This document shows positions 9,115 through 35,540 of a stretch of DNA of 64,000 nt, in pieces. Positions within the stretch are counted from its first letter, which is position 1. Every line of letters begins with the position of its first letter. The stretch comes from Fibrobacteria bacterium. GTDB taxonomy: Bacteria; Fibrobacterota; Fibrobacteria; UBA11236. The notes under the pieces are model-generated. The model saw only the letters and a program-made list of their open reading frames with translations, ran no database searches and was not told the origin of the DNA. The position numbers and the translations under genes were made by a program. The stretch is taken from contig JAYTSD010000008.1 in NCBI GenBank assembly GCA_043745805.1, positions 64,001-128,000 of the forward strand, in the 5' to 3' direction.

Positions 9115-12100
9115 CTACCGCGAAATCACCAAAGTATTTCTCTTTGTACTCAAGGTATTATAATTAACCGTTTCAAAATCCGCTTTGCGTCGCACTTGCA
9201 CTTGATAAAAATACACCCCATTGGCTAATAAATTATTCCATTCATCCCGTCCATCCCAATGCTGACCGGACCCCGAAAGATGATCTAATTTCCGCACTAA
9301 AAATCCGCTTTGATTATAAATACGCAACTCAAAACTTAAACTGTCTTTACTTTTATCTTGCCCTAATTCGCCTTCCGCAGCCGGTAGTACCGAAGCGAAA
9401 TAAAAAGTGGTGCCATTGCGTTTCATGGGATTGGGGGAATTATAAACCTTAATTAAGGCCAATGAGCTGTCGCTGCGAATATCCATTTGCAGTTGTCTTT
9501 GGGTAATATTTCCATACCCATCACGTGCCGAAACTTTTAATAAATGTATTCCGGGTTTAAAATTTTTAGCATCCACATTAAGCTTATAGGTTTTGCGCCT
9601 CAATTCATCATCACGCGGCTGCGGATGAAACGGCTCTAGTATGCCTGGCACTTCAAAAGTTGTGCCTTGATCAGGGCCGTCGCCATTTACCGGACCACTT
9701 AAAGAATCGGTCACTTGTACTTCCAAACAATACGGTAACGATAAAGTTACCTTCGAACCAAAATCTTCGGAAGCCGTTTGTGCCCCATTGCATCCGGTAA
9801 TAATAATTTTGGGGCCGTCATTATCTTCTCCACCACAATTTTTGGCAACGCTGCCTATGCGAATATTTTGTTTAGCTACTGACCCTTCCATTTCCTGACT
9901 GCCATCCCAAGCAAAGGCAGAAATAAGCGCCGTAGTATCTCCAAAAGGCACCGCTTTAGGAAATAAATATTCGGCATCAAAAGTGAAGTTTTCATAGGCA
10001 ATAACGCGTTCAAAAAGAATATTACCGCGCTTAACAATGCTTTGAGTTTCCAAATTTCCGGGGAAATAATCTTTAACTGTACTTCCTCCAAAAATTTTTA
10101 TTTGCACAAATCCCTTGCCACTACCGCCTTGAATTTTTCCTTGAATGTGTCCGCAACCTAAGGATTGTAGGGTGTCGGGAGCTTGCGTAAAAGCAATATG
10201 CAAAGGAGGCTTACGCAAAAGCAAAACCGGTTCGCCCAATAGATTATATTTAGCATCGTTATTTCCGTTGAAAGAGCCCTTGCCGTTTTTTGCATTTCTT
10301 AAAGCATCGCCAACGGTTATGGCAGTATGCAATGAATCCGGCCAAAAAATATTTGCATAGAATGCGGAGGCTAAAGCAATATTGGGATCGGGAAAAGATT
10401 CGCGAGTAGAAGATACAGCGGATATTGCACCGACACTCGGCGCGCGCACAAATTGTTCGCTCAATCCATCTTTCTTTACCAAATCATAGCGGCCCACAGT
10501 ACAAGAAAAAGCATTGATCATAAAATTTTTCCCAACATTATTTAGACGGGATAAAGCATCTGCGGACTGCAATAAGCCTTCATCGGCCCAAACCTCTTCG
10601 GATCCATGGCCCACATAATTTACCATGAGCGCTCCTTTATCTTGATTTAATAAATTCAAAAGGTCTTGCGCCGCCTCGGGCTTTTGTCCTGCAGCATTAG
10701 GAACATAATCCAGTAAAGAAATTTTATCCAAAGTTAAACCAGGATCATTTGCTTGCACAATTTTGGCTAATAACTCGGATTGATTATTGTGTCGGCCTAT
10801 GGGATCTTCATTATTTGGTCGTCCGCGTTGACTAGCATCATCGGCGGTAAATACTACGCGTCCTCGCCATTGTCCATTGGGTTTTCCCGCTTTAATTCCA
10901 TATACTTGAGGATCTTCAAAGGCTTTTATTTTTTCAAAAATATTCTTCCATTGATCTAAGTTTTCAATAGGGATTCTTCCGATGTTTAAAGACAATAGGG
11001 AGGTTCCCCACGTCGATGTGGAATCAAACCATCCATAAAAATCATCACTCACTTCGGTATACCATTCATAAGGAGGAATGAAGTTTTTTTTGTCTGAAGA
11101 AACAATAATGTTACGGTAATCGAAATGTCCATCCCCCAATAGCACCACATATTTAAGCGGATTATCAGCCGCCGATTTACCCCCCCATTTATTCAAAGCA
11201 TATTGCAAAAAATCACGAATCGCTACGGGCGATAAACGCCCTCCAGAAAATTCACGGTATATATCTTCGGTTCTAACAATTGCTGTTTTTAAAGGGAAAG
11301 CTCTTTTACCATCATTGCGAAAACTTCTTAATTGCTGCGCAGCTGAAAAGAAAACATTGGGCGTAATAATTAAATACTCGGGGTTAACCCCATCACTCGT
11401 TCCTAAATTTCGGATAGCCGAGTTTCCGGACGGTAAATTTTCCAGCGAAATATTGGACTTGGCGAAGATTAATTCATCTTTACCTTTGCGGTAAAAATAA
11501 TAGCGGACATTTTCATCTTCTGCTACGCTATCCGAAAAATCTCCAGCAATACTTAAGACTATTTCATTTGTAGCTACGCCGTCAACCACTTTGAGACCTT
11601 GTAAATCAGAAGGACCGGTCACATGATAGCTCAATCTTATCCCTGTATTGGGAGGGAAAATCCAAAAAGGTTTGCTTACATATTTATTCTCGCGATTATA
11701 TACAAACGTATAGCCTTCTAATTTTTTACCGTTAAACCAATATACTGAATCGAATTTGAAGCGATTTAAAGTGCTTGGGCCTGGTAGAGAATAGTAACTT
11801 GCTCCGTTTTGCATTTTATTAATAGCTGTATTGTAGATAAATGTTTTTTGATTTAAAGTTGGAGTAAAATTGTTTTGAGTAGAACGGGGTAATACGCTCA
11901 ATCCCACATAAAGCGAATCTTCTTTATAAGCAGAAATTGTATCTAGTTCTTCGCTAAATAACTGATTGCCAGATAGAGTGCTTGGCTTTTCTCCAGAACA
12001 CGCCGGACTACCTTCACCCGCTCTCATAAACCAAAACCAATTGATTCCTGTCGCAGAATCAGTTCCCGGTGATGGATCACACTCAGCTATTGCCACTACT

Positions 12101-13272
12101 TTTTGCGCACGCAAATAGGTATATGACGAGCTTAAAGAATTGGAACTTGCTGATGGTATAGCCGTCAAGCGTTGGGCTGTAGCCGCATTCGTAGCAGAGA
12201 AGTTTAAATAATAAAAGTTTTTTAAGGAATACGGATCACTATTAAATTCAAATTGAATTTTGCCATTGCCTTTAATTTTTTTCCATGTACTCGTTCCATG
12301 TCCATAGAAATAAATTGTGTCGCCGGCATCAAAGTTGGTATTAGCATTTGCATCCACCACGCGAATAGGTATTTCATGCAAATTGGTTGAATCGGGAACG
12401 GTTCCTTTAGGTTGGGCTTTTAATGTATCATTGGGGCCTGTAAATACTCGTATTTTATTCACTGATAGTCCTACAAATTTACTGCTGATAGAATCTGCGA
12501 GATCAAGGAAAGGAATCGCATACATACCATCTTCAGCAAAACCATCGATTTGCCTATCCCCTACGGAAAGCTTTATGTAAGCGTCGCCTATGTTTATTTC
12601 GGAACGGCCATTTATTTTTCGTAAGGCATGACTAGTTTGGTAATTAAATCGTCCACCTAGCGGGTTTTTGATTCCCCACAAAAACATTTCGGGTAATGTG
12701 GACGTAGCGGGTGCGTTTTTTAGGTTAGAGAAGGTTACCGTAACATGTATTTTTTTAAGTCGAGTTAAAGTTTTATTTTCCTGCGCCCATAAAGCTAAAG
12801 GTAAAGTAATCGTGCGACAGGGCACACCGCGTAACATTTGTATCTCCCCTATTTTAGGGCTTAATATATTAGCCGCCGAATAGTATTGCGCATCGACTTT
12901 ACTTTCAAATTGTGTGGTGGTTTTGTAAGTGCGTACGGGAGCCAATACCTTTGCCAAAACACTATTTTCCGAACTAACCACATCAATCTGAACTTGCGGC
13001 ATGGCATCGCCAGTAATAACGCGAAAACTGTAAATGGGTAATTGCGGAGCGCCTTGTCGATTTTCTGTTTCGCAACCCAAACAGGAAATGGCTAATCCGC
13101 CATCGAGCGAAGTCAGGCTGGCATTCGGTGGTGTAATTTCCAATTCCAACGCTCCGGCAACATCGCGAAGTACTTTACCAAAATCTGCATTGGCTTTATG
13201 ACTTAAAATCAATAGGCAAATAAGAGTTAAAATTAAGCGCGAGGATATTTTATGCGCTAAAAAATATTTCAT
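9115..13272 (-). CDS. PorU-like C25 (gingipain-family) cysteine peptidase/sortase with FlgD-Ig-type C-terminal domain
   Basis: YFYGHG, EYLIITP, DIYREFSGG, VLLGDG, IGRIP, catalytic YVGHG and FSC, LLGEP; C-terminus YNSPNPM...IYNQSGFLVR...WDGRD...NGVYFY. Confidence 0.85.
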   Translation of the reverse strand: MKYFLAHKISSRLILTLICLLILSHKANADFGKVLRDVAGALELEITPPNASLTSLDGGLAISCLGCETENRQGAPQLPIYSFRVITGDAMPQVQIDVVSSENSVLAKVLAPVRTYKTTTQFESKVDAQYYSAANILSPKIGEIQMLRGVPCRTITLPLALWAQENKTLTRLKKIHVTVTFSNLKNAPATSTLPEMFLWGIKNPLGGRFNYQTSHALRKINGRSEINIGDAYIKLSVGDRQIDGFAEDGMYAIPFLDLADSISSKFVGLSVNKIRVFTGPNDTLKAQPKGTVPDSTNLHEIPIRVVDANANTNFDAGDTIYFYGHGTSTWKKIKGNGKIQFEFNSDPYSLKNFYYLNFSATNAATAQRLTAIPSASSNSLSSSYTYLRAQKVVAIAECDPSPGTDSATGINWFWFMRAGEGSPACSGEKPSTLSGNQLFSEELDTISAYKEDSLYVGLSVLPRSTQNNFTPTLNQKTFIYNTAINKMQNGASYYSLPGPSTLNRFKFDSVYWFNGKKLEGYTFVYNRENKYVSKPFWIFPPNTGIRLSYHVTGPSDLQGLKVVDGVATNEIVLSIAGDFSDSVAEDENVRYYFYRKGKDELIFAKSNISLENLPSGNSAIRNLGTSDGVNPEYLIITPNVFFSAAQQLRSFRNDGKRAFPLKTAIVRTEDIYREFSGGRLSPVAIRDFLQYALNKWGGKSAADNPLKYVVLLGDGHFDYRNIIVSSDKKNFIPPYEWYTEVSDDFYGWFDSTSTWGTSLLSLNIGRIPIENLDQWKNIFEKIKAFEDPQVYGIKAGKPNGQWRGRVVFTADDASQRGRPNNEDPIGRHNNQSELLAKIVQANDPGLTLDKISLLDYVPNAAGQKPEAAQDLLNLLNQDKGALMVNYVGHGSEEVWADEGLLQSADALSRLNNVGKNFMINAFSCTVGRYDLVKKDGLSEQFVRAPSVGAISAVSSTRESFPDPNIALASAFYANIFWPDSLHTAITVGDALRNAKNGKGSFNGNNDAKYNLLGEPVLLLRKPPLHIAFTQAPDTLQSLGCGHIQGKIQGGSGKGFVQIKIFGGSTVKDYFPGNLETQSIVKRGNILFERVIAYENFTFDAEYLFPKAVPFGDTTALISAFAWDGSQEMEGSVAKQNIRIGSVAKNCGGEDNDGPKIIITGCNGAQTASEDFGSKVTLSLPYCLEVQVTDSLSGPVNGDGPDQGTTFEVPGILEPFHPQPRDDELRRKTYKLNVDAKNFKPGIHLLKVSARDGYGNITQRQLQMDIRSDSSLALIKVYNSPNPMKRNGTTFYFASVLPAAEGELGQDKSKDSLSFELRIYNQSGFLVRKLDHLSGSGQHWDGRDEWNNLLANGVYFYQVQVRRKADFETVNYNTLSTKRNTLVISR

Positions 13273-27835: not shown

Positions 27836-28549
27836 TTAGGGATGAACTGGAGGCTGGCCAACCACATCGGTTATGGTAGTTACCGGTGGAGCGGGCTTGG
27901 GTTTTAAATAATCATAAGCAAAATAACCAGCACCACCTAAAATTGCCATAGCCAAAGGGAATTCCCAATAGAAGGCATTATTTTTACGGGTGATTTTATT
28001 TTCCAAACGCTTATTCCATTTAAAGGCCATGGTTATTACGCCAAAATCTTCTTGCACTTCGTATTCCAAATCAAATGCTGTGAAAAGTGTAACGCGCACC
28101 ACATCGCGTAAATCAGGCTTCATACCTTCAACATCTTTATTTAAATCCAGCTTAAACAATTCCACGGTGCTATTGCTAATGGGATGTTCATGAATCGCAT
28201 CCATTATACTTTCACCGATTTTTGTATCGTAAAAATCAAATACAATAGCCTTTTTAATGGGATCATAATAGTTGAAATAGGCGGAAGGTTTTTCGGTTAG
28301 TAAAAAAACCACGCTTAGTTCTTTAGAGTCGGGAGTGGCGCCAATTTTTTTATTGAATTGTACCCCTTCAATGGTACAAATAACGCCTTGTTCATCCTTG
28401 GTAATTGTTGGAGCTTCGGGGGCATCGACTAAATCTTCGTATTGAGCAAATGAAGTAGCACAAAAAATGGAAGCGACTAACCCTAGAATTTGTATCGGCT
28501 TTTTTAACACGACCAACCTTTCGATACTGTTTAATCTAAAATAGGCCAA
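27836..28549 (-). CDS. Exported AMIN-like domain protein with C-terminal membrane anchor
   Basis: Signal peptide; YYDP.KKAIVFDFYDT and VVRVTL resemble AMIN strands; C-terminal TM helix and Pro-rich tail. Confidence 0.5.
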   Translation of the reverse strand: MAYFRLNSIERLVVLKKPIQILGLVASIFCATSFAQYEDLVDAPEAPTITKDEQGVICTIEGVQFNKKIGATPDSKELSVVFLLTEKPSAYFNYYDPIKKAIVFDFYDTKIGESIMDAIHEHPISNSTVELFKLDLNKDVEGMKPDLRDVVRVTLFTAFDLEYEVQEDFGVITMAFKWNKRLENKITRKNNAFYWEFPLAMAILGGAGYFAYDYLKPKPAPPVTTITDVVGQPPVHP

Positions 28550-28704
28550 TAATCGACCCTGTCAATTGATTTGGCTTTAATCCACGCTTTTAAGATAAAA
28601 ATTCCCGTCAAAAAGAAAGGCTAACCCTAGCGAAAAGGAAAGAAAAAATCGGGTAGCCCGAAAGGACTTCCGTTTTTGGAGTTTAAGGAAGGAAAAATCA
28701 AAAG

Positions 28705-30198
28705 CTATAGTCCATTCACAGCCAGCCACTCATTTAAAACAGCCAATGTTGCTGGTGTTAATTGCCCTGAAGGAGGCATTGGAATTGTTGAAGAGTTAAT
28801 TCGACTTTTAAAATTTACAACGTCCGCCCTTACAATTGTTTCATCAGCCCAACTTTTTTGCGGGGCACCAGAAGGAATATTTCCCACGTGGCAACTATTA
28901 CAGCTTACTGAAGTAATTGCTGCCACATCCGCAAAATTAGCCTTCACGATCACACTAAAAGCATTTGTCTTGGTGCCATCAGAACTCGTAGCTGTTACTG
29001 TGGCACTTCCTCTAGACTGGCCATAATACAGCGTCCCGCTAATAAGCACGGATGCATTGCTGCTAGCGAGCGAATAGCTCGTATTTGTTGGGCTCGAAGG
29101 ATTCCAAACAACTGAAGTGTTGTGCCAACCATCGGCATGAACAATCGAAGTCGCTCCGGATACCGTCAAACCAATAACCGGCGTAGTCACCGTAACATTA
29201 AAGCTACTCGCTGCCGTACCCGTACTATTATCAGTTGCCGTGATGGAAACGGAAGTATTCACCACATCGCAAATTCCGGTTATAGTTTTAGCTGCATTGT
29301 CCACAATCACACAATTCGATGAACTTACCATACTAAAAGTTTGATCTGTGCTGGCAGATGGCAAAATAGTAGGCGCAATTACCAGACTCGAGCCGCCTTT
29401 AAATAAACTTTTTGCAGCTACCGTAATACTCGTGGGATGAATAGGCTGCACCGTGGCATTAAAAGTTCCGGTGACCGACCCACTTACTGAAGTGATAGTA
29501 ATTAAAGTGGTTCCCACGCTGACGCCGAAAAGATTATGTCCCGAAACGGTTACCCCTGCCCCACCACTCGCAAGCGTATAAGCGATATTGGTGGCATCAC
29601 TGGGCGCTACGGTTACCGCGGGTGTTACAGTTTGCCCAACAGCCAAAGAAATGGGTGACGCCGAAACCGACGTGACCGGAACGAAGGCCGCTTGCACGGT
29701 AACTTGAAAAGTACTTTGTGCACTTCCATCATGGGAACTTATGGTGATTTGCGCATTGCCCAGATTAATGGCCTTTAAAGTGTCGCCAGCAATAGCAACC
29801 ACAGATAAATTGGAACTAATGAGCGAATAGGTTTTATCGCTGGCTGTGACAGGAAGAACTCCAATGGCAGGAAGTGTATCTTGCCCTTTAATCAAAACCA
29901 TATCTAAAGCCGAAAGTGACGCCACAGGAACAGTAACCGTAATCACATGCGCCGAAAAAGTAGTTACCCATCCCCTATCATTAGTGGTAAGGGTTATAGT
30001 CGCCGTGCCTTGTTTTACACCGATTAAGGAATCGCCCTTTATGGACACTATAGAAGAATCGGAACTCGTTAAGTTATAACTTTTATCAGTAGCATTAGTA
30101 GGTGTAAAGGAAATGCTGGGCAAGGCGACTTGCCCGAGATTAAGATTTATGGATGCAGCAGAGACACTAGTTAGGGGGTAAAAAAAAAATCTATCCAC
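28705..30198 (-). CDS. C-terminal part of Ig-repeat/cytochrome c surface protein (5 Big_2-like repeats plus 1 CxxCH domain); probably the -1 frame continuation of 30171..32273
   Basis: Repeats of P..A(T/S)(D/N)..Y.L.S....V......L.G...G...IT; CNSCH...MPP; no signal peptide or RBS. Confidence 0.8.
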   Translation of the reverse strand: MDRFFFYPLTSVSAASINLNLGQVALPSISFTPTNATDKSYNLTSSDSSIVSIKGDSLIGVKQGTATITLTTNDRGWVTTFSAHVITVTVPVASLSALDMVLIKGQDTLPAIGVLPVTASDKTYSLISSNLSVVAIAGDTLKAINLGNAQITISSHDGSAQSTFQVTVQAAFVPVTSVSASPISLAVGQTVTPAVTVAPSDATNIAYTLASGGAGVTVSGHNLFGVSVGTTLITITSVSGSVTGTFNATVQPIHPTSITVAAKSLFKGGSSLVIAPTILPSASTDQTFSMVSSSNCVIVDNAAKTITGICDVVNTSVSITATDNSTGTAASSFNVTVTTPVIGLTVSGATSIVHADGWHNTSVVWNPSSPTNTSYSLASSNASVLISGTLYYGQSRGSATVTATSSDGTKTNAFSVIVKANFADVAAITSVSCNSCHVGNIPSGAPQKSWADETIVRADVVNFKSRINSSTIPMPPSGQLTPATLAVLNEWLAVNGL

Positions 30199-32273
30199 TG
30201 GACTATTTGATTGATATCTTTTTGGTCCAGCCGCTTCTGCGGTTGAGGTGGCATGATACCAGGAGTTCCAGAAGCTTTTGAAATTCGGTTCTTAATAATA
30301 TCTGCTCGAGACTTATCCAATAGACTAGTTGAATCTGTGGCATTAAAACCATTATTTGAATTACTATGACAAGCCGCACAATGCGCTTCCATTAAAGGAA
30401 GTATGGTTTCTTTAAAGGATATAGGCTTTACTTTTACCGTAAAATTTTTACTAACTAATCCATGAGCGACAGTAACCGTTGCATTACCGGCTTTTTTTCC
30501 CACTAGTCTTCCGCCAATTAAGGTCACGAGAGCGGTATCGGCTGTGCTTAGTGTGTAGGTTCTTTCGGAAGTGCTATCGGGGATCCAAATAATATAGGGA
30601 TGTAAAGTATCATCCACAGTAATGCTCGTATCCGCTATATTCAATCCAGTAAAAGCTATGGATTTCGGATTTAAAAAATTCTGCAAAATAAGCGAATCAT
30701 GTTTGTTTAATTTTGCATTAATCGGCATAAATTTGGGATCAGTATCGACTAAACCTAAGCGCTGCAAAATAATGGATTTATTATTCATTAGAGTAGCCGA
30801 ATCGGTATAATCCTTTGAAGTAGATGGACCATGGCAGCGCCCGCAATTGTATTGAACTATCGGCGATATTTGGCTATTGAATGTCGGCAAAACAATATTA
30901 AAAATAAAATTACTTTTTACGCCTCCATCTTTACTCGTCGCTTCAATTACCGTTTTACCCAATTTCTTAGCAAACAAATGATCATTCTCTCCCACTACTG
31001 TTACTTTTTGTGCATCAGCGGCATTCAAAAAGCTTAAGATGAAGTTTTGATTGCTGGCATCAATTGGAGTCCAACGGAAGGTGGGCTTTATAGTATCCCC
31101 TAATACAGCAAATGTATCTGGCGCAAAAAAGGAATTCACTTTGATGGAACGCCCGCTAATCCACTTTACCACAATGGCTATTTCGGCATCGGTAATATCC
31201 CCATTAATTGCTTGGTCGGATTGTACGGGCATGCGGCCATTATTTGCTACTCCACGTGGGCGAGTAATTCTATCCGTGATATTTATTCCATATTGCAAAA
31301 CCGCCAAGGAATCTTGCCAGTTTAAAAGCGAGGAGGGAGTATGACAAGGAAAACATTTTAAAGTGGTAATGGGTAAAACATTTTTTTTGAAATTCACTAA
31401 AATAGTCACTTTAAAAGTTGTATGAATACTGCTATCCATTGCACTAGTTACCTGAATAGTATCTACACCAAACCCTTTGGCCACTATCGTATCATTAGCA
31501 ATAGACACCAAGGAAGAAGTATTTAAATTTTTAAAAATCATCTTACGATTCGAGGCGTCGTTGGGTATTAAAGCAAGATTAGCTTTTAAAGTGTCTCCCA
31601 AATAAATACTGGTATCACGAACCGCGATTTTGGTTAATGTTACCAAATTATCATCTTTCGCGAAAACTTGGAAAAAACTATTGGCATTTCCATCCGCACT
31701 AATGATTTGCACCGAGTCTTGACCCGCACCCAAAGCTGTTATTTGATTACCCGTAACTTGCAAGATACCATTGATTTTGACTTTTAAGGTAAAGAGTTTA
31801 TTGGAGGCTGTGTCTGGTAAAATTTTTACGGTTGGCGATTTTAATTCGCCCACATTTAAACGCAGCGTGTCCGCGGAAATATTTTTTACTAAAACTTTTA
31901 AATCTTTGCCCACCGAATCGATTGCCTTATAACCGGAATACTCAAATTGTTTATCATAAACGATGCCACCATTTTTTAAGCCAATGACTTTGACCGAAAA
32001 AATTTTGCCCGGATTATTGGTTAATAAAACTTTGATCACCTTTGTGGTATCTTTAATTGCAACAACTTTAGTTTCCATCAACTTATTGTTCTCATAAATC
32101 TGTAAACGCAAGCTATCGAATTTACCTACTAAAGCACTGTCCAGTTTGTAGGAGAATTCGGTTTTATCTTCGGTTACTGTATGCGTACAAGCACTCCAAA
32201 AGTCGGCCGTAGCCATTATCCCTGCGAGCAGTATGAATGTTTTTAGTATTGAAGAGAAAAAACGGTTACTCAT
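30171..32273 (-). CDS. Lipoprotein with 4 Big_2-like Ig repeats and 3 monoheme cytochrome c domains
   Basis: Lipobox-like WSAC; CFPCH, CGRCH and CAACH, each preceded by F...(I/V).P(I/L) and followed by a distal MP (His/Met ligation). Confidence 0.82.
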   Translation of the reverse strand: MSNRFFSSILKTFILLAGIMATADFWSACTHTVTEDKTEFSYKLDSALVGKFDSLRLQIYENNKLMETKVVAIKDTTKVIKVLLTNNPGKIFSVKVIGLKNGGIVYDKQFEYSGYKAIDSVGKDLKVLVKNISADTLRLNVGELKSPTVKILPDTASNKLFTLKVKINGILQVTGNQITALGAGQDSVQIISADGNANSFFQVFAKDDNLVTLTKIAVRDTSIYLGDTLKANLALIPNDASNRKMIFKNLNTSSLVSIANDTIVAKGFGVDTIQVTSAMDSSIHTTFKVTILVNFKKNVLPITTLKCFPCHTPSSLLNWQDSLAVLQYGINITDRITRPRGVANNGRMPVQSDQAINGDITDAEIAIVVKWISGRSIKVNSFFAPDTFAVLGDTIKPTFRWTPIDASNQNFILSFLNAADAQKVTVVGENDHLFAKKLGKTVIEATSKDGGVKSNFIFNIVLPTFNSQISPIVQYNCGRCHGPSTSKDYTDSATLMNNKSIILQRLGLVDTDPKFMPINAKLNKHDSLILQNFLNPKSIAFTGLNIADTSITVDDTLHPYIIWIPDSTSERTYTLSTADTALVTLIGGRLVGKKAGNATVTVAHGLVSKNFTVKVKPISFKETILPLMEAHCAACHSNSNNGFNATDSTSLLDKSRADIIKNRISKASGTPGIMPPQPQKRLDQKDINQIVQWIDFFFTP
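30180..30189 (-). repeat. T10 homopolymer at the frameshift junction of the cytochrome/Ig gene
   Basis: Coding strand reads CAG TGG ATA GAT TTT TTT TTT ACC CCC TAA. Confidence 0.9.
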
Positions 32274-32968
32274 TTTAATTCTCCATTAATAGTATGTACC
32301 TGGGTTTTGGTTTCGGTTCCGCCGGTACTATAAAGCACTATGCCGGTGATGGTCGCAGCTGCTGCTGTTCCACCGGCGATCCACATCCACATTTTAGAAG
32401 AGTTATTTTGATTCGTAAGCGAAGTACTTGTTCCGGGTACCTTTTTTGCCTCATTGCGTTTTTGCAAAGCAATGGCACTATCAAAAGCCGGATTGCTATG
32501 ATTTGTTTTTACCCCTTCTTGCTCTTCAAAACGCGAACGTACACGTCTGAAAATAGCTTCGATGCTATCGCCTACTCCCAAACGTGATAAGTTTTCTTCT
32601 GGAGAAATTTTAAGCATTTGATACAAAAAACTTTCAGCTTTTTTTTTTGTCACTTCATCCGCACCGTAAATCACACCGAGGTATTTGTAAATAAAAACGG
32701 AGTCGTCGCGATTGCGCATTTGTCTTTCACGACGAATGTTTTCTAATAACTTCACCAATTGTTCGAAGTCACCTTCTTGATAAAGGTTTTGCGCTAAGTT
32801 TTTATCCAGTCCATTTTGATTGTTTTTACTTGGAGAAGATTTAGAGGAAGAGGTATTTGTTTTGGTGGACGAGGTTTTCGCTTCTTTTGCATGCAATAAA
32901 AGTGGAAGCAGGCAAATCATTGATAATCCCAAGCAATATCTTACTTTCATAGATTCCTTCGATGCCAA
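32270..32968 (-). CDS. Exported TPR-like protein with C-terminal Gly/Ala-rich membrane segment
   Basis: Signal peptide, one TPR-like unit (LYQEGDF...YKYLGVIY), C-terminal WMWIAGGTAAAATITGIVLY; ATGA overlap with the cytochrome gene. Confidence 0.65.
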   Translation of the reverse strand: MASKESMKVRYCLGLSMICLLPLLLHAKEAKTSSTKTNTSSSKSSPSKNNQNGLDKNLAQNLYQEGDFEQLVKLLENIRRERQMRNRDDSVFIYKYLGVIYGADEVTKKKAESFLYQMLKISPEENLSRLGVGDSIEAIFRRVRSRFEEQEGVKTNHSNPAFDSAIALQKRNEAKKVPGTSTSLTNQNNSSKMWMWIAGGTAAAATITGIVLYSTGGTETKTQVHTINGELK

Positions 32969-33109
32969 AATAATTTCCCAACGATATGAATTTCTCGTGA
33001 ACCACGAAAAAATCGAATTGCGTTTCGTTCAGTGAGAAAAATTAGATATAAAGTGAACAAAGCCCCAACCAAAATTGGGAGCTAAAATGGAATTTAAAAG
33101 GTCTATTCG

Positions 33110-34705
33110 CTAGGTCATTACGGAAAGTTCTGCAAAATGAATAATAAAGGTAGTGCCCACACCAGGAACGGAAATAAGCTCCATGTTATAGCCCATTAAG
33201 TCCAATATTGATTTTGAAATACTCAAACCCAAACCTGTTCCGCCATATTTTCGGGAAGTGGTTGTGTCGGCTTGTTGAAAAGCCTCAAAAACTACTTTTT
33301 GTCGGTCGGGAGGGATACCGATGCCAGTATCACTTACGGCTATACTTTTTGGCTTTTGTGTATTTGGATCGACGGTTACGCTGACCTTCACCCAACCCTT
33401 GGCAGTAAATTTCAAAGCATTCCCGATCAAGTTAATTAAAACTTGCTTCAATTTACCCGCATCCGTATCCATAGGAGCCATCATCATTGGTAACTCACAG
33501 ATTACGGTAACTTCAGTGTTATGTGTTTGACCTTCAAAATGTGGAATTATTTCATGGAGCAACTCGGCTAGCGATATGGAAGTCCATTGCATATCAGGCT
33601 TTCCCGCTTCGATTTTTGATAAATCGAGAATATCATTAATTAATGAAAGTAAATGTTTTCCATTGTCGAAAATACGTTCCAAATACTGAACTTCATTTTC
33701 CGCCAAATGCCCTACTTTATTTTTACGCAAAATATTGGCAAAGCCGAGAATAGAATTTAATGGCGTTCTTAATTCATGACTCATATGCGCTAGGAATTCG
33801 CTTTTGGCAGCATTGGCCTTTTCTGCCCACTCCTTCGCTTCCTGCGAGGCTTTTTCTAGTCGCTTGCGTTCCGTGATATCGCAGGTTACATTGGCAAAAC
33901 CTCGCAAATAGCCGGTTTCATCATGTAAAGCCGTCACTACCGAGTTGGACCAAAATAGGCTTCCATCCTTACGTACCCGCCATTCTTCCTCTTCACATCG
34001 ACCAAGAGCCGCAGCTTCCCGTAAAATCTTTTCGGGACGTCCTGAGGATATATCTGCAGCAGGGAAAAGTCGAGCGAAATGTCGTCCCATAATTTCTTTA
34101 GCGGTATAGCCTTGAATTCTTTCTGCCCCTGCATTCCAACTCATGACATGGCCATCGGGATCGAGCATGATAATAGCATAATCTCGCACCCCTTCCTCAA
34201 TTAAGCGAAAACGTTCTTCACTATTACGCAGCGCTAATTGGGCGCGCTTCTGTTCCGTAATATCGTGTAATACGCCAGAAGCTCCAAGTACCGTACCTTG
34301 CGAGTTACAATTTACCCGCGCATACATTTCTAGCCAACGGAATCCACCTTCACATTCAAGGAAACGGATTTCTTGTCGTAAGAACTCGCGTTTTTGTTGC
34401 ATTAAATCCCAAAAAAATTCTGTATGTAGAGATTTTTCTTTAGGATGCACAAATTCAAAAAAACTTTTGCCCAAACTTTGAGCAATAGAAAAACCGGTAA
34501 TTTCAGACCAAGCCTGATTTAAAAAAATCCAATGCCCTTGCGCGTCGGTTTGAAATAATACATCACGCAAATCATCTACCACCAAACCCAGCTGGGCTTG
34601 GCTATGCTGCTGTTGAGGGGATAAGCCTGCGGATATATCGCTCCCTTTTGCTTCGTACGAGAATGAATTCAAATCGGCAATCATAATTCGTCTCTTAAAA
34701 TCCAT
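33110..34705 (-). CDS. PAS-PAS histidine kinase (likely start ATG 34684)
   Basis: Two PAS/PAC domains, KSEFLAHMSHELRTPL, NALKFT, DTGIGI, GGTGLGL. Confidence 0.92.
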   Translation of the reverse strand: MDFKRRIMIADLNSFSYEAKGSDISAGLSPQQQHSQAQLGLVVDDLRDVLFQTDAQGHWIFLNQAWSEITGFSIAQSLGKSFFEFVHPKEKSLHTEFFWDLMQQKREFLRQEIRFLECEGGFRWLEMYARVNCNSQGTVLGASGVLHDITEQKRAQLALRNSEERFRLIEEGVRDYAIIMLDPDGHVMSWNAGAERIQGYTAKEIMGRHFARLFPAADISSGRPEKILREAAALGRCEEEEWRVRKDGSLFWSNSVVTALHDETGYLRGFANVTCDITERKRLEKASQEAKEWAEKANAAKSEFLAHMSHELRTPLNSILGFANILRKNKVGHLAENEVQYLERIFDNGKHLLSLINDILDLSKIEAGKPDMQWTSISLAELLHEIIPHFEGQTHNTEVTVICELPMMMAPMDTDAGKLKQVLINLIGNALKFTAKGWVKVSVTVDPNTQKPKSIAVSDTGIGIPPDRQKVVFEAFQQADTTTSRKYGGTGLGLSISKSILDLMGYNMELISVPGVGTTFIIHFAELSVMT

Positions 34706-35076
34706 TGTGCAACCACCGCTAATAGTACCGTATCATCGAGAATCGGCTTCGAGACATAATCATTAAATCCTGCCGCTAAAAACTTCTGTCTATCTCCCGT
34801 CATAGCATGAGCGGTTAATGCGATCACAGGGATTTTTTTCCAATTATTTTCCGTACGGATTTTTTGTAAAACTTGCAAACCATCCATTTCAGGTAAAGAA
34901 ATATCCAGTAAAATTAAATGCGGTTTATTTTCATTAAAGTCCGCGAAGGCCTCTCTACCGCTTGCGTATTGGCTAATAGCATAAAAATCTTGCAGAATAG
35001 CTTCCGCTAATAATCGATTATCGGGATTATCTTCTATGATAGCGATTTTTTGCATGAAACCTTTCGCAACCCTCAT
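34681..35076 (-). CDS. Single-domain response regulator (DivK/CheY-like)
   Basis: IIEDN, LLDISLPEMDG, ALTAHAM, SKP. Confidence 0.92.
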   Translation of the reverse strand: MRVAKGFMQKIAIIEDNPDNRLLAEAILQDFYAISQYASGREAFADFNENKPHLILLDISLPEMDGLQVLQKIRTENNWKKIPVIALTAHAMTGDRQKFLAAGFNDYVSKPILDDTVLLAVVAQWILRDEL

Positions 35077-35174
35077 TACTCATAAATTATAAGGGGTGGA
35101 AAACTCTATGAGCAAAGAACTCTCGAAGAGGCTTTTGCCCCCTCTGAGTTTGTTTGAGGAAAAGTTGCGAGGTT

Positions 35175-35540
35175 TTAGTGAACGGTGGTAATACGCATTG
35201 CGCGTTCACGGCGCAGCCAACTACTGGCATTATCTAAGGAAACACTTAATTGAGTTAATAGAGGCAAGACAATATCTTTTTCTCCATTTTCAGCCATGGT
35301 CTCAATGCGTTGCGCCAAGTCTCGCACTTCCGTAGCACCTACGTTACCTGCACTTGACTTAAGGGAATGCACCGCACGTGAAATGGACTCCAAATCACCT
35401 ACTCTTCCACCCAAGCAGGCATCATCCAAACGCTGCGGTGACCGTTCTAAAAAAATATCGATCATCTTGTTTAATAATTGTTCTCCACCCAATTTTTCTA
35501 ATCGGGTTAAGGCATTTGCATCCGCCAATATCCCACGCAT
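35175..35540 (-). CDS. Stand-alone Hpt phosphotransfer protein
   Basis: AVHSLKSSAGNVGA motif. Confidence 0.9.
   Translation of the reverse strand: MRGILADANALTRLEKLGGEQLLNKMIDIFLERSPQRLDDACLGGRVGDLESISRAVHSLKSSAGNVGATEVRDLAQRIETMAENGEKDIVLPLLTQLSVSLDNASSWLRRERAMRITTVH

Follow-up and report, generated by a model that had tools for sequence, protein, structure and literature searches.

It was not until 2023 to 2024 that tethered, widely spaced hemes became recognized as an electron-carrier class, from one Geobacter protein. This protein, PgcA (GSU1761) of Geobacter sulfurreducens, is described as an extracellular lipoprotein that has a beta-rich domain at its N terminus, works by tethered diffusion of its three monoheme domains, adopts conformations with a reach of up to 180 angstroms, and reduces Fe(III) and Mn(IV) oxides (PMC10570954, PMC11520253). 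The class name, heme-tethered redox strings, was confined to a single publication in the full-text literature searched. Here we describe a gene from an uncultured Fibrobacteria bacterium (assembly GCA_043745805.1) that encodes a predicted lipoprotein in which immunoglobulin-like (Ig-like) domains are interspersed with cytochrome c modules. It lies in a 64,000-nucleotide stretch of contig JAYTSD010000008.1 (positions 64,001 to 128,000), hereafter the window, to whose first letter all plain coordinates refer. By analogy, the Ig-cytochrome family to which this protein belongs resembles the known "hemes on a string" carriers in a form with rigid spacers.

The window protein, a predicted lipoprotein, is like PgcA in having a candidate lipobox, a beta-rich domain right after the anchor, at least three separate monoheme domains, and no close-packed heme chain; PgcA has His/Met ligation in domains I and II and nanometer spacing on one chain. 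The spacers differ, being unstructured (Pro-Thr)n tethers in PgcA and one to five folded Ig-like domains in the window protein, as do the heme domains (∼60 to 68 amino acids in PgcA versus ∼80 in the window modules). In addition, the window protein comes from another phylum, and its family, unlike PgcA, always has a cytochrome at the anchor-distal end. By sequence, the closest proteins are the class I cytochromes c (c6, c552/c551, and CcoP domains; PF13442/PF00034), with their first-helix CxxCH, distal Met-Pro, and C-terminal helix. Those are free-standing or domains of respiratory complexes, whereas the four window copies are embedded among Ig-like domains and three of them are too diverged to reach the Pfam cut-offs singly. 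MtrC and OmcS are close-packed multiheme cytochromes whose bis-His hemes lie a few angstroms apart in one fold. Like them, the window protein would be a cell-envelope protein bearing c-type hemes, which may pass electrons beyond the cytoplasmic membrane, but it has one His/Met-type heme per ∼80-amino-acid domain, and these domains are separated by at least one beta sandwich of ∼70 amino acids. The leptospiral Lig proteins, for their part, are Big_2 stalk lipoproteins with an N-terminal lipid anchor and no heme domains; the window protein has the same succession of lipid anchor, predicted in its case, and long Big_2-type string, but with diverged Ig repeats and with heme modules.

The gene is divided over two open reading frames (ORFs), with the following features:

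30171..32273, minus strand: ORF1, 700 amino acids, 5' portion of the Ig-cytochrome lipoprotein gene
28705..30198, minus strand: ORF2, 497 amino acids, 3' portion of the same gene
30180..30189, minus strand: run of 10 T in mRNA sense (T10), with the frame change at the domain boundary past cytochrome module 3
28649..28661, minus strand: terminator-like hairpin plus T run, 44 nt past the ORF2 stop (pattern match only)

ORF1 and ORF2, which overlap by 28 nt, are by homology one gene, since tblastn searches with the single-chain homologues P0002, P0010, and P0004 gave collinear pairs of high-scoring segments in frames -3 and -2 that meet across T10, at 30174-30192/30177. With P0002, residues 3 to 697 aligned in frame -3 to position 30174 and residues 697 to 966 in frame -2 from position 30177, all in one linked set. 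The junction reads, in mRNA sense, GAT TTT TTT TTT ACC CCC TAA, with the 0-frame stop two codons past the run; an 11th T, or a -1 slip, at the run would give read-through from ORF1 into ORF2. The initial annotation, made from the letters of the window, had joined the two frames into ∼1189 amino acids, a length consistent with such read-through. The joining stood, and the frameshift itself was not addressed there. As encoded, the product would be a 700-amino-acid three-heme lipoprotein, and the four-heme form would need a T11 variant or polymerase or ribosome slippage. ORF2 lacks its own signal peptide, and no Shine-Dalgarno motif was seen ahead of its GTG. Its cytochrome module would not be exportable or maturable unless fused to ORF1. 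The frame of ORF2 is open across 497 codons, with the heme motif, the Arg, and the Met-Pro all intact, and the terminator-like site is placed after ORF2, not after ORF1.

The order of domains along the joined chain is lipobox, N domain, Ig, Ig, cytochrome, Ig, cytochrome, Ig, cytochrome, five Ig, and cytochrome, as follows:

32187..32273, minus strand: predicted signal peptide and lipobox (..FWSA-C29), Cys column at least 90% conserved
31935..32162, minus strand: N domain, residues ∼38 to 113, a seven-stranded beta sandwich with invariant Gly50, Asp53, and Ser54
31413..31880, minus strand: Ig-like repeats 1 and 2, residues 132 to 201 and 216 to 287 (family hidden Markov model [HMM]; AlphaFold2 strands)
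31146..31397, minus strand: cytochrome c module 1, CFPCH at residues 307 to 311, internal type
30906..31127, minus strand: Ig-like repeat 3, residues 383 to 456 (family HMM)
30660..30887, minus strand: cytochrome c module 2, CGRCH at residues 477 to 481, internal type, last helix without Trp
30441..30644, minus strand: Ig-like repeat 4, residues 544 to 611 (family HMM)
30174..30422, minus strand: cytochrome c module 3, CAACH at residues 632 to 636, of a type between internal and terminal
28957..30165, minus strand: Ig-like repeats 5 to 9, ORF2 residues 12 to 81, 95 to 164, 178 to 246, 258 to 333, and 358 to 414
28708..28941, minus strand: cytochrome c module 4, CNSCH at ORF2 residues 433 to 437, terminal type, at the anchor-distal end

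This layout had been proposed in the initial annotation and proved right in every element, according to the placement of the Ig HMM and the positions of the CxxCH motifs. The Ig HMM was grown iteratively from one repeat across the family. The Pfam Big_2 model (PF02368) matched ORF2 with 27.5 bits (cut-off, 22.8) and the homologue P0002 with 50 bits in three stretches; it did not match ORF1 alone, whose repeats were recognized only by the family-derived HMM. At the N terminus, a hydrophobic segment is followed by W-S-A-C29, with a noncanonical Trp at position -3. Among 15 aligned sequences the Cys was conserved in at least 90%, in agreement with the lipobox that had been proposed, and the homologues have canonical forms, e.g., I-G-S-C; the protein is accordingly listed here as a predicted lipoprotein. 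In the AlphaFold2 model of ORF1 (mean predicted local distance difference test [pLDDT], 78.6), beta sandwiches and helical modules were well defined and the Ig-like spacers were folded, with pLDDT mostly of 80 to 95; module 3 was badly modeled (pLDDT below 50 at residues 620 to 647). The initial annotation had looked to such a model for heme spacing. It yielded good individual domains but no reliable interdomain geometry, since with a predicted template modeling score of only 0.43 neither the arrangement of the domains nor the spacing of the hemes is readable from it. The N domain modeled alone reached a pLDDT of 83, and its structure matched only generic FN3/C2/Ig-like folds.

The CxxCH motifs lie at residues 307 (CFPCH), 477 (CGRCH), and 632 (CAACH) of ORF1 and at residue 433 (CNSCH) of ORF2, compared with ∼0.001 and 0.0005 motifs expected by amino acid composition in ORF1 and ORF2, respectively. 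Six of the seven Cys residues of ORF1 fall within these motifs, and the seventh is the lipobox Cys29. All four modules have a Phe ∼12 residues ahead of the first Cys, the CxxCH, and a later Met-Pro, and modules 1, 3, and 4, but not module 2, have a Trp in the last helix; the leading Phe, the Met-Pro, and the Trp in three of four modules had been read from the letters at the outset. Across the three ORF1 motifs, both Cys residues and the His were invariant or at least 90% conserved among the 15 aligned sequences, and the predicted heme-binding residues are thus kept in homologues. Similarly, among 45 aligned modules excised around their own motifs (CxxCH being present in 45 of 45 by construction), Met-Pro was found in 45 and Asp-Ser and the Arg in 44 each; 40 had the leading Phe and 39 to 40 the late Trp. 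The Met-Pro forms one alignment column, which fits a distal Met as the predicted sixth ligand, ∼35 to 45 residues after the His.

Profile searches pointed to class I cytochromes c. ORF1 matched Cytochrome_CBB3 (PF13442) with 44.7 bits and module 3 alone did so with 35.3 bits (cut-off, 27); only module 3 passes the PF13442/PF00034 cut-offs by itself, module 4 remaining below with 17.8 bits and modules 1 and 2 giving only weak Haem_bd/PccH matches. With a profile built from the four window modules only, which limits its reach, 51 PDB sequences matched at an E value of ≤10, the best being cytochrome c6 (E value, 0.0014), followed by c552, c551, CcoP, and c4. AlphaFold2 placed three to four helices in each module, with the CxxCH ending the first helix, and the secondary structure of modules 1 and 2 fits class I. 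By these signatures, the modules are predicted class I (His/Met-type) cytochromes c and not PSCyt1. The initial annotation had compared them to a planctomycete-type/His-Met monoheme fold; the His/Met part stood, its signatures being conserved in homologues, and the planctomycete-type identity was not supported, as only Cytochrome_CBB3/Cytochrom_C matches were obtained and PSCyt1 (PF07635) gave none with ORF1 or ORF2 at an E value of ≤0.1 or with the four single modules even at ≤10. HMMs derived from internal and terminal modules of the homologues assigned modules 1 and 2 to the internal type and module 4 to the terminal type, and module 3 was intermediate (52.3 and 50.0 versus 52.7 bits).

A word-indexed search recovered only one full-length relative, P0002 (1119 amino acids, 28% identity over 97% of ORF1), annotated at its source as "uncharacterized protein YjdB." An exhaustive HMMER search returned 1251 proteins at an E value of ≤0.001, mostly plain Ig-repeat proteins, and 20 at ≤1e-30; CxxCH was present in 23 of the 152 proteins collected. 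Fourteen representatives (P0002 and P0004 to P0016; 892 to 1147 amino acids) have the same domain order, with three CxxCH in 13 and two in the other. Each chain runs from a lipobox and an N domain through one to four Ig, cytochrome, Ig, cytochrome, and four to five Ig to a terminal cytochrome. The tip heme of the initial annotation has its counterpart in the cytochrome module that the Ig HMM layout places at the anchor-distal end of every member, and four CxxCH were found in the window protein alone among the family proteins. In the lineage of the window, 18 of 41 related genomes had a match (these genome tallies include G021). Unbroken orthologue frames of 924 to 1253 amino acids were found in 11 genomes of one family-level group; all 10 genomes of genus g3 matched, two of them (G006 and G019) only weakly via Ig repeats, and 1 of 10 in genus g4. 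Together, these proteins are, as homology and domain order indicate, a small conserved family of uncultured Fibrobacteria.

The Ig-cytochrome gene is preceded by a small gene, up232, with which it overlaps:

32270..32968, minus strand: up232, 232 amino acids, its stop overlapping the ORF1 start (ATGA)
32639..32648, minus strand: run of 10 A in mRNA sense (A10) within up232, in frame and coding for Lys-Lys-Lys

A GGAG lies 9 nt ahead of the ORF1 ATG, and the two genes are predicted to be coupled in translation. The product of up232 comprises a signal peptide, a Ser/Thr-rich low-complexity stretch, a strongly conserved helical domain of ∼85 amino acids, a variable linker, and a C-terminal transmembrane helix; no Pfam or NCBIfam family covers it, and its 19 homologues share 37 invariant columns. 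It is the only neighbor conserved across genera, a homologue being in place at 5 of 11 loci, in five genera. The locus is thus a two-gene unit, made up of a small membrane-anchored helical protein and an Ig-cytochrome lipoprotein of ∼1190 amino acids. A predicted complex of ORF1 residues 26 to 300 with the conserved domain of up232 scored 0.00, which carries no weight either way.

The up232 family, with proteins of ∼200 to 290 amino acids, is multicopy: 25 of the 41 related genomes carry it, and a single genome has as many as 24 matches. Six matches were found here, including the window copy (32270-32968, minus strand) and those at G000 C45:36080-36835, C20:83259-83966, C36:2973-3656, and C1:43186-43899. 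Three further copies here precede lipoprotein-like PKD, cadherin-like, Big_13, or Big_2 proteins. When the 20 best-scoring copies in relatives, none adjoining an Ig-cytochrome gene, were sampled, 11 had beta-sandwich-repeat proteins of 722 to 1272 amino acids downstream; the other nine had a glucose/sorbosone dehydrogenase-type protein (one), unrelated cytoplasmic genes (three), proteins with no Pfam family (four), or nothing within 400 nt (one). The Ig-cytochrome gene is therefore one cargo of a recurring two-gene cassette, and the up232 family, whose copies usually sit just ahead of a gene for a large beta-sandwich-repeat lipoprotein, may form a partner system for envelope proteins in Fibrobacteria that has yet to be described. 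A homology of the N domain to the lipoproteins of the paralogous cassettes was considered and is not claimed, the similarity being weak (BLASTP E values, 0.21 and 0.03; hhalign probability, 11%). One sister cassette (G000:C45:36825-39848) encodes a lipoprotein with five PKD domains and a ThuA domain at the end, and a cassette of a relative (L086:1188-2762) has the glucose/sorbosone dehydrogenase-type cargo. Redox-type sister cargo of these ThuA and sorbosone dehydrogenase types could serve as donors for the tethered cytochrome.

We hold with moderate confidence that the protein is an anchored, multivalent electron carrier with folded Ig spacers, of the tethered-diffusion type. The lipoprotein would be exported by Sec and lipidated at Cys29, and its four hemes would be loaded by System II, for which the genome has a ResB gene adjoining a CcsA-type gene (contig 4) as well as another PF01578 gene (contig 46); the maturation machinery that the initial annotation had looked for is in place. 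Potential partners encoded in the genome are two cytochrome c peroxidases, additional small cytochromes, and a heme-copper oxidase. Once matured, it would act as an anchored multivalent carrier. Because at least one folded domain of ∼70 amino acids lies between cytochromes, hemes of the same chain would be beyond tunneling distance unless the chain bends, so that electrons would have to pass when modules collide. Such collisions could involve modules of flexing or neighboring molecules, as well as soluble or solid partners, as in the tethered diffusion of PgcA, and the rigid spacers would set the reach of the carrier. The reading is supported by the company kept by the upstream family, whose members precede large PKD, cadherin-like, or Big_2 proteins, typical envelope or surface types, at 11 of the 20 sampled loci plus three here.

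Several observations weigh against this interpretation. Modules 1, 2, and 4 are individually below the Pfam cut-offs. The PgcA domain structures 8QJ6, 8QJG, and 8QK0 were not among the 51 PDB matches of the four-module profile (E value, ≤10), so that the protein resembles PgcA in design and not by demonstrated homology. No outer-membrane electron conduit was evident, the maximum being five CxxCH per ORF among 7165 stop-to-stop ORFs of at least 80 amino acids, leaving a surface protein with no evident route of electron supply. No respiratory or redox enzyme was found in the neighborhood, here or in relatives, where the neighbors are thiolase, FadB-like, Rrf2, and succinyl-CoA synthetase genes, housekeeping genes conserved in genus g3. 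Nor did the Ig-cytochrome gene covary with the oxidase or maturation genes; since the oxidase occurs in 24 of 24 relatives and the maturation genes in 23 of 24, these do not track the Ig-cytochrome gene, which is not universal. Finally, the gene is frameshifted in this genome, and the full protein may not be made here at all.

The lack of an evident conduit bears on where the carrier would face. It could instead be tethered in the periplasm, through an anchor in the outer membrane (inner leaflet) or in the inner membrane, passing electrons from quinol-oxidizing complexes to the heme-copper oxidase or the cytochrome c peroxidases, with the Ig domains as mere spacers. Class I His/Met modules are the kind used in aerobic chains, and the genome encodes an oxidase of the heme-copper type, two of these peroxidases, and additional small cytochromes but no evident large multiheme conduit. 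Heme attachment is itself periplasmic, so no extra export step would be needed. Lipid- or helix-anchored class I cytochromes, such as cytochrome cy and the lipoprotein c551, play this part in other bacteria. However, judging from general domain sizes, ten beta-sandwich and four cytochrome domains in extended form would span several tens of nanometers, more than the usual periplasm. Moreover, all 10 genomes of genus g4 have the oxidase, yet 9 of them lack the gene, and the domains of the paralogous cassettes are of kinds usual in surface proteins. On balance, a periplasmic carrier appears unlikely. An outward-facing carrier is favored by its size and by the surface-type domains seen in sister cassettes, and one facing the periplasm by class I chemistry and the lack of an evident outer-membrane conduit. 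The surface location and the extended filament of the initial annotation, like the functions it put forward, stay conjectural.

A role other than electron transfer, as an adhesin or stalk whose hemes would serve for sensing, peroxidase-like detoxification, or heme/iron storage, is in our view very improbable. The scaffold does resemble Big_2-type stalk proteins, no redox partner is encoded nearby, and a set of Hpt, response-regulator, and PAS-kinase genes lies directly upstream. Yet a terminator-like site parts the kinase gene from the operon, and the kinase genes are not conserved beside orthologues. Besides, six-coordinate His/Met class I domains are as a rule electron carriers.

The status of the T10 run bears on which form of the carrier this genome can make. 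In Logan contigs from four runs of one sediment-metagenome study, every piece that spans the run (region 29700 to 30700) read T10 and contained no gap. The assembly may derive from two of these sequencing runs; at the site, the remaining two reach a depth of only ∼2.7 to 2.9. The two lower-depth runs contained a variant with three nearby single nucleotide polymorphisms in ORF2, two synonymous and one changing Thr to Asn, too few to measure selection. The 3.95-Mb genome has 25 homopolymers of at least 10 nt and 257 of at least 9 nt. Only 4 of the 257 lie between two long same-strand frames, T10 being the sole such case among the 25; the assembly is thus not full of homopolymer breaks. Of the other three, one involves a pair of complete T2SSE ATPase genes, one a pair of unrelated genes, and one an IS3-type transposase. 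At G000:C32:91-953, an IS3-type transposase has its helix-turn-helix and integrase-core parts in two frames flanking an A9 run, a classic slippage-prone arrangement. The A10 run of up232 and T10 place 2 of the genome's 25 runs of at least 10 nt in one 4.3-kb operon, against ∼0.03 expected in a post hoc count.

These data make it decidedly unlikely that the split stems from a mistake in sequencing or assembly and that the true genome has T11. Homopolymers are error-prone, two of the runs may have fed the assembly, and the other two are shallow at the site; even so, independent contig builds of the four runs agree on T10 with no gap, and the genome is not riddled with comparable breaks (4 of 257). 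Absent such an error, the gene would either have decayed recently or contain a switch that depends on T10/T11 variation or on slippage. That the gene is truly broken in this genome, yielding only the 700-amino-acid three-heme product or nothing useful, with ORF2 as a young pseudogene remnant, is possible but doubtful. T10 appeared without an indel in the contigs of all four runs, including the variant with three polymorphisms, the orthologues are unbroken in 11 of 11 relatives, and ORF2 lacks a signal peptide and an evident ribosome-binding site of its own. No strong RNA structure was found close to T10 (fold z, -1.69), i.e., no classical -1 stimulator, and the only candidate, a 7-bp hairpin ∼45 nt downstream, was rejected as evidence of frameshifting. 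Decay would nevertheless have left 497 open codons with the module signatures intact and would have struck exactly on a domain boundary. Runs of nine or more T or A are known to cause polymerase slippage.

A more speculative proposal, which we consider a long shot, is that T10 is a length switch between a short three-heme form and a long form with a five-Ig stalk and a fourth, terminal-type heme, and that the upstream gene is possibly part of an unrecognized Fibrobacteria system. As T10 lies exactly past module 3, the encoded product would be a complete short form, tipped by a cytochrome like all family members. If so, a T11 subpopulation (phase variation) or slippage would approximately double the reach of the carrier. 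If the part concerning the upstream gene were true, the protein would be the redox-active member of a new cell-envelope display system, in which small membrane-anchored helical proteins each serve a large beta-sandwich lipoprotein.

No description of the architecture was found in the full-text literature on combinations of Ig-like/Big_2, cytochrome c, CXXCH, adhesin, and lipoprotein. The view of the initial annotation that it had not been described therefore agrees with the literature searched, but the principle of a spaced-monoheme lipoprotein has been published for PgcA, which was not mentioned there. The building plan seems to recur: the metagenomic protein P0104 (1283 amino acids) has five CxxCH ∼295 amino acids apart, with Cytochrome_CBB3 matches alternating with fn3, Big_7, and Kre9-like domains. 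It follows the same plan but is unrelated, with other beta-sandwich families and another spacing, and falls outside the Ig-cytochrome family. Another metagenomic protein, P0066 (350 amino acids), has four CxxCH 78 amino acids apart with no spacers.

If the tethered-carrier reading is correct, cells also build carriers of set length, in which countable rigid Ig spacers replace floppy tethers. The family would then offer a natural series, with one to five spacers and two to four hemes, in which to test spacing against tethered electron transfer. It would also place c-type cytochrome carriers on an adhesin-like scaffold in uncultured Fibrobacteria; the cultured Fibrobacteria are mainly fermentative polysaccharide degraders. 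For its part, the recurring small upstream gene would be a lead to how giant lipoproteins are handled.

The remaining neighbors are less conserved: the downstream 237-amino-acid gene and the SerA-like, TPR, and two-component genes were not conserved beside orthologues. The first of these (27836-28549, minus strand) lies directly downstream and encodes a protein with an N-terminal signal or anchor, a C-terminal membrane helix, and no family match. Directly upstream of the operon (33110-35540, minus strand) are genes for an Hpt protein, a single-domain response regulator, and a double-PAS histidine kinase, and the terminator-like site at 33063-33080 lies between this set and the operon. Elsewhere in the window, a gene at 9115-13272 (minus strand) encodes a 1385-amino-acid Peptidase_C25 (gingipain-type) protein, whose C-terminal CHU_C type IX secretion signal is weak (26.6 bits versus a cut-off of 27).

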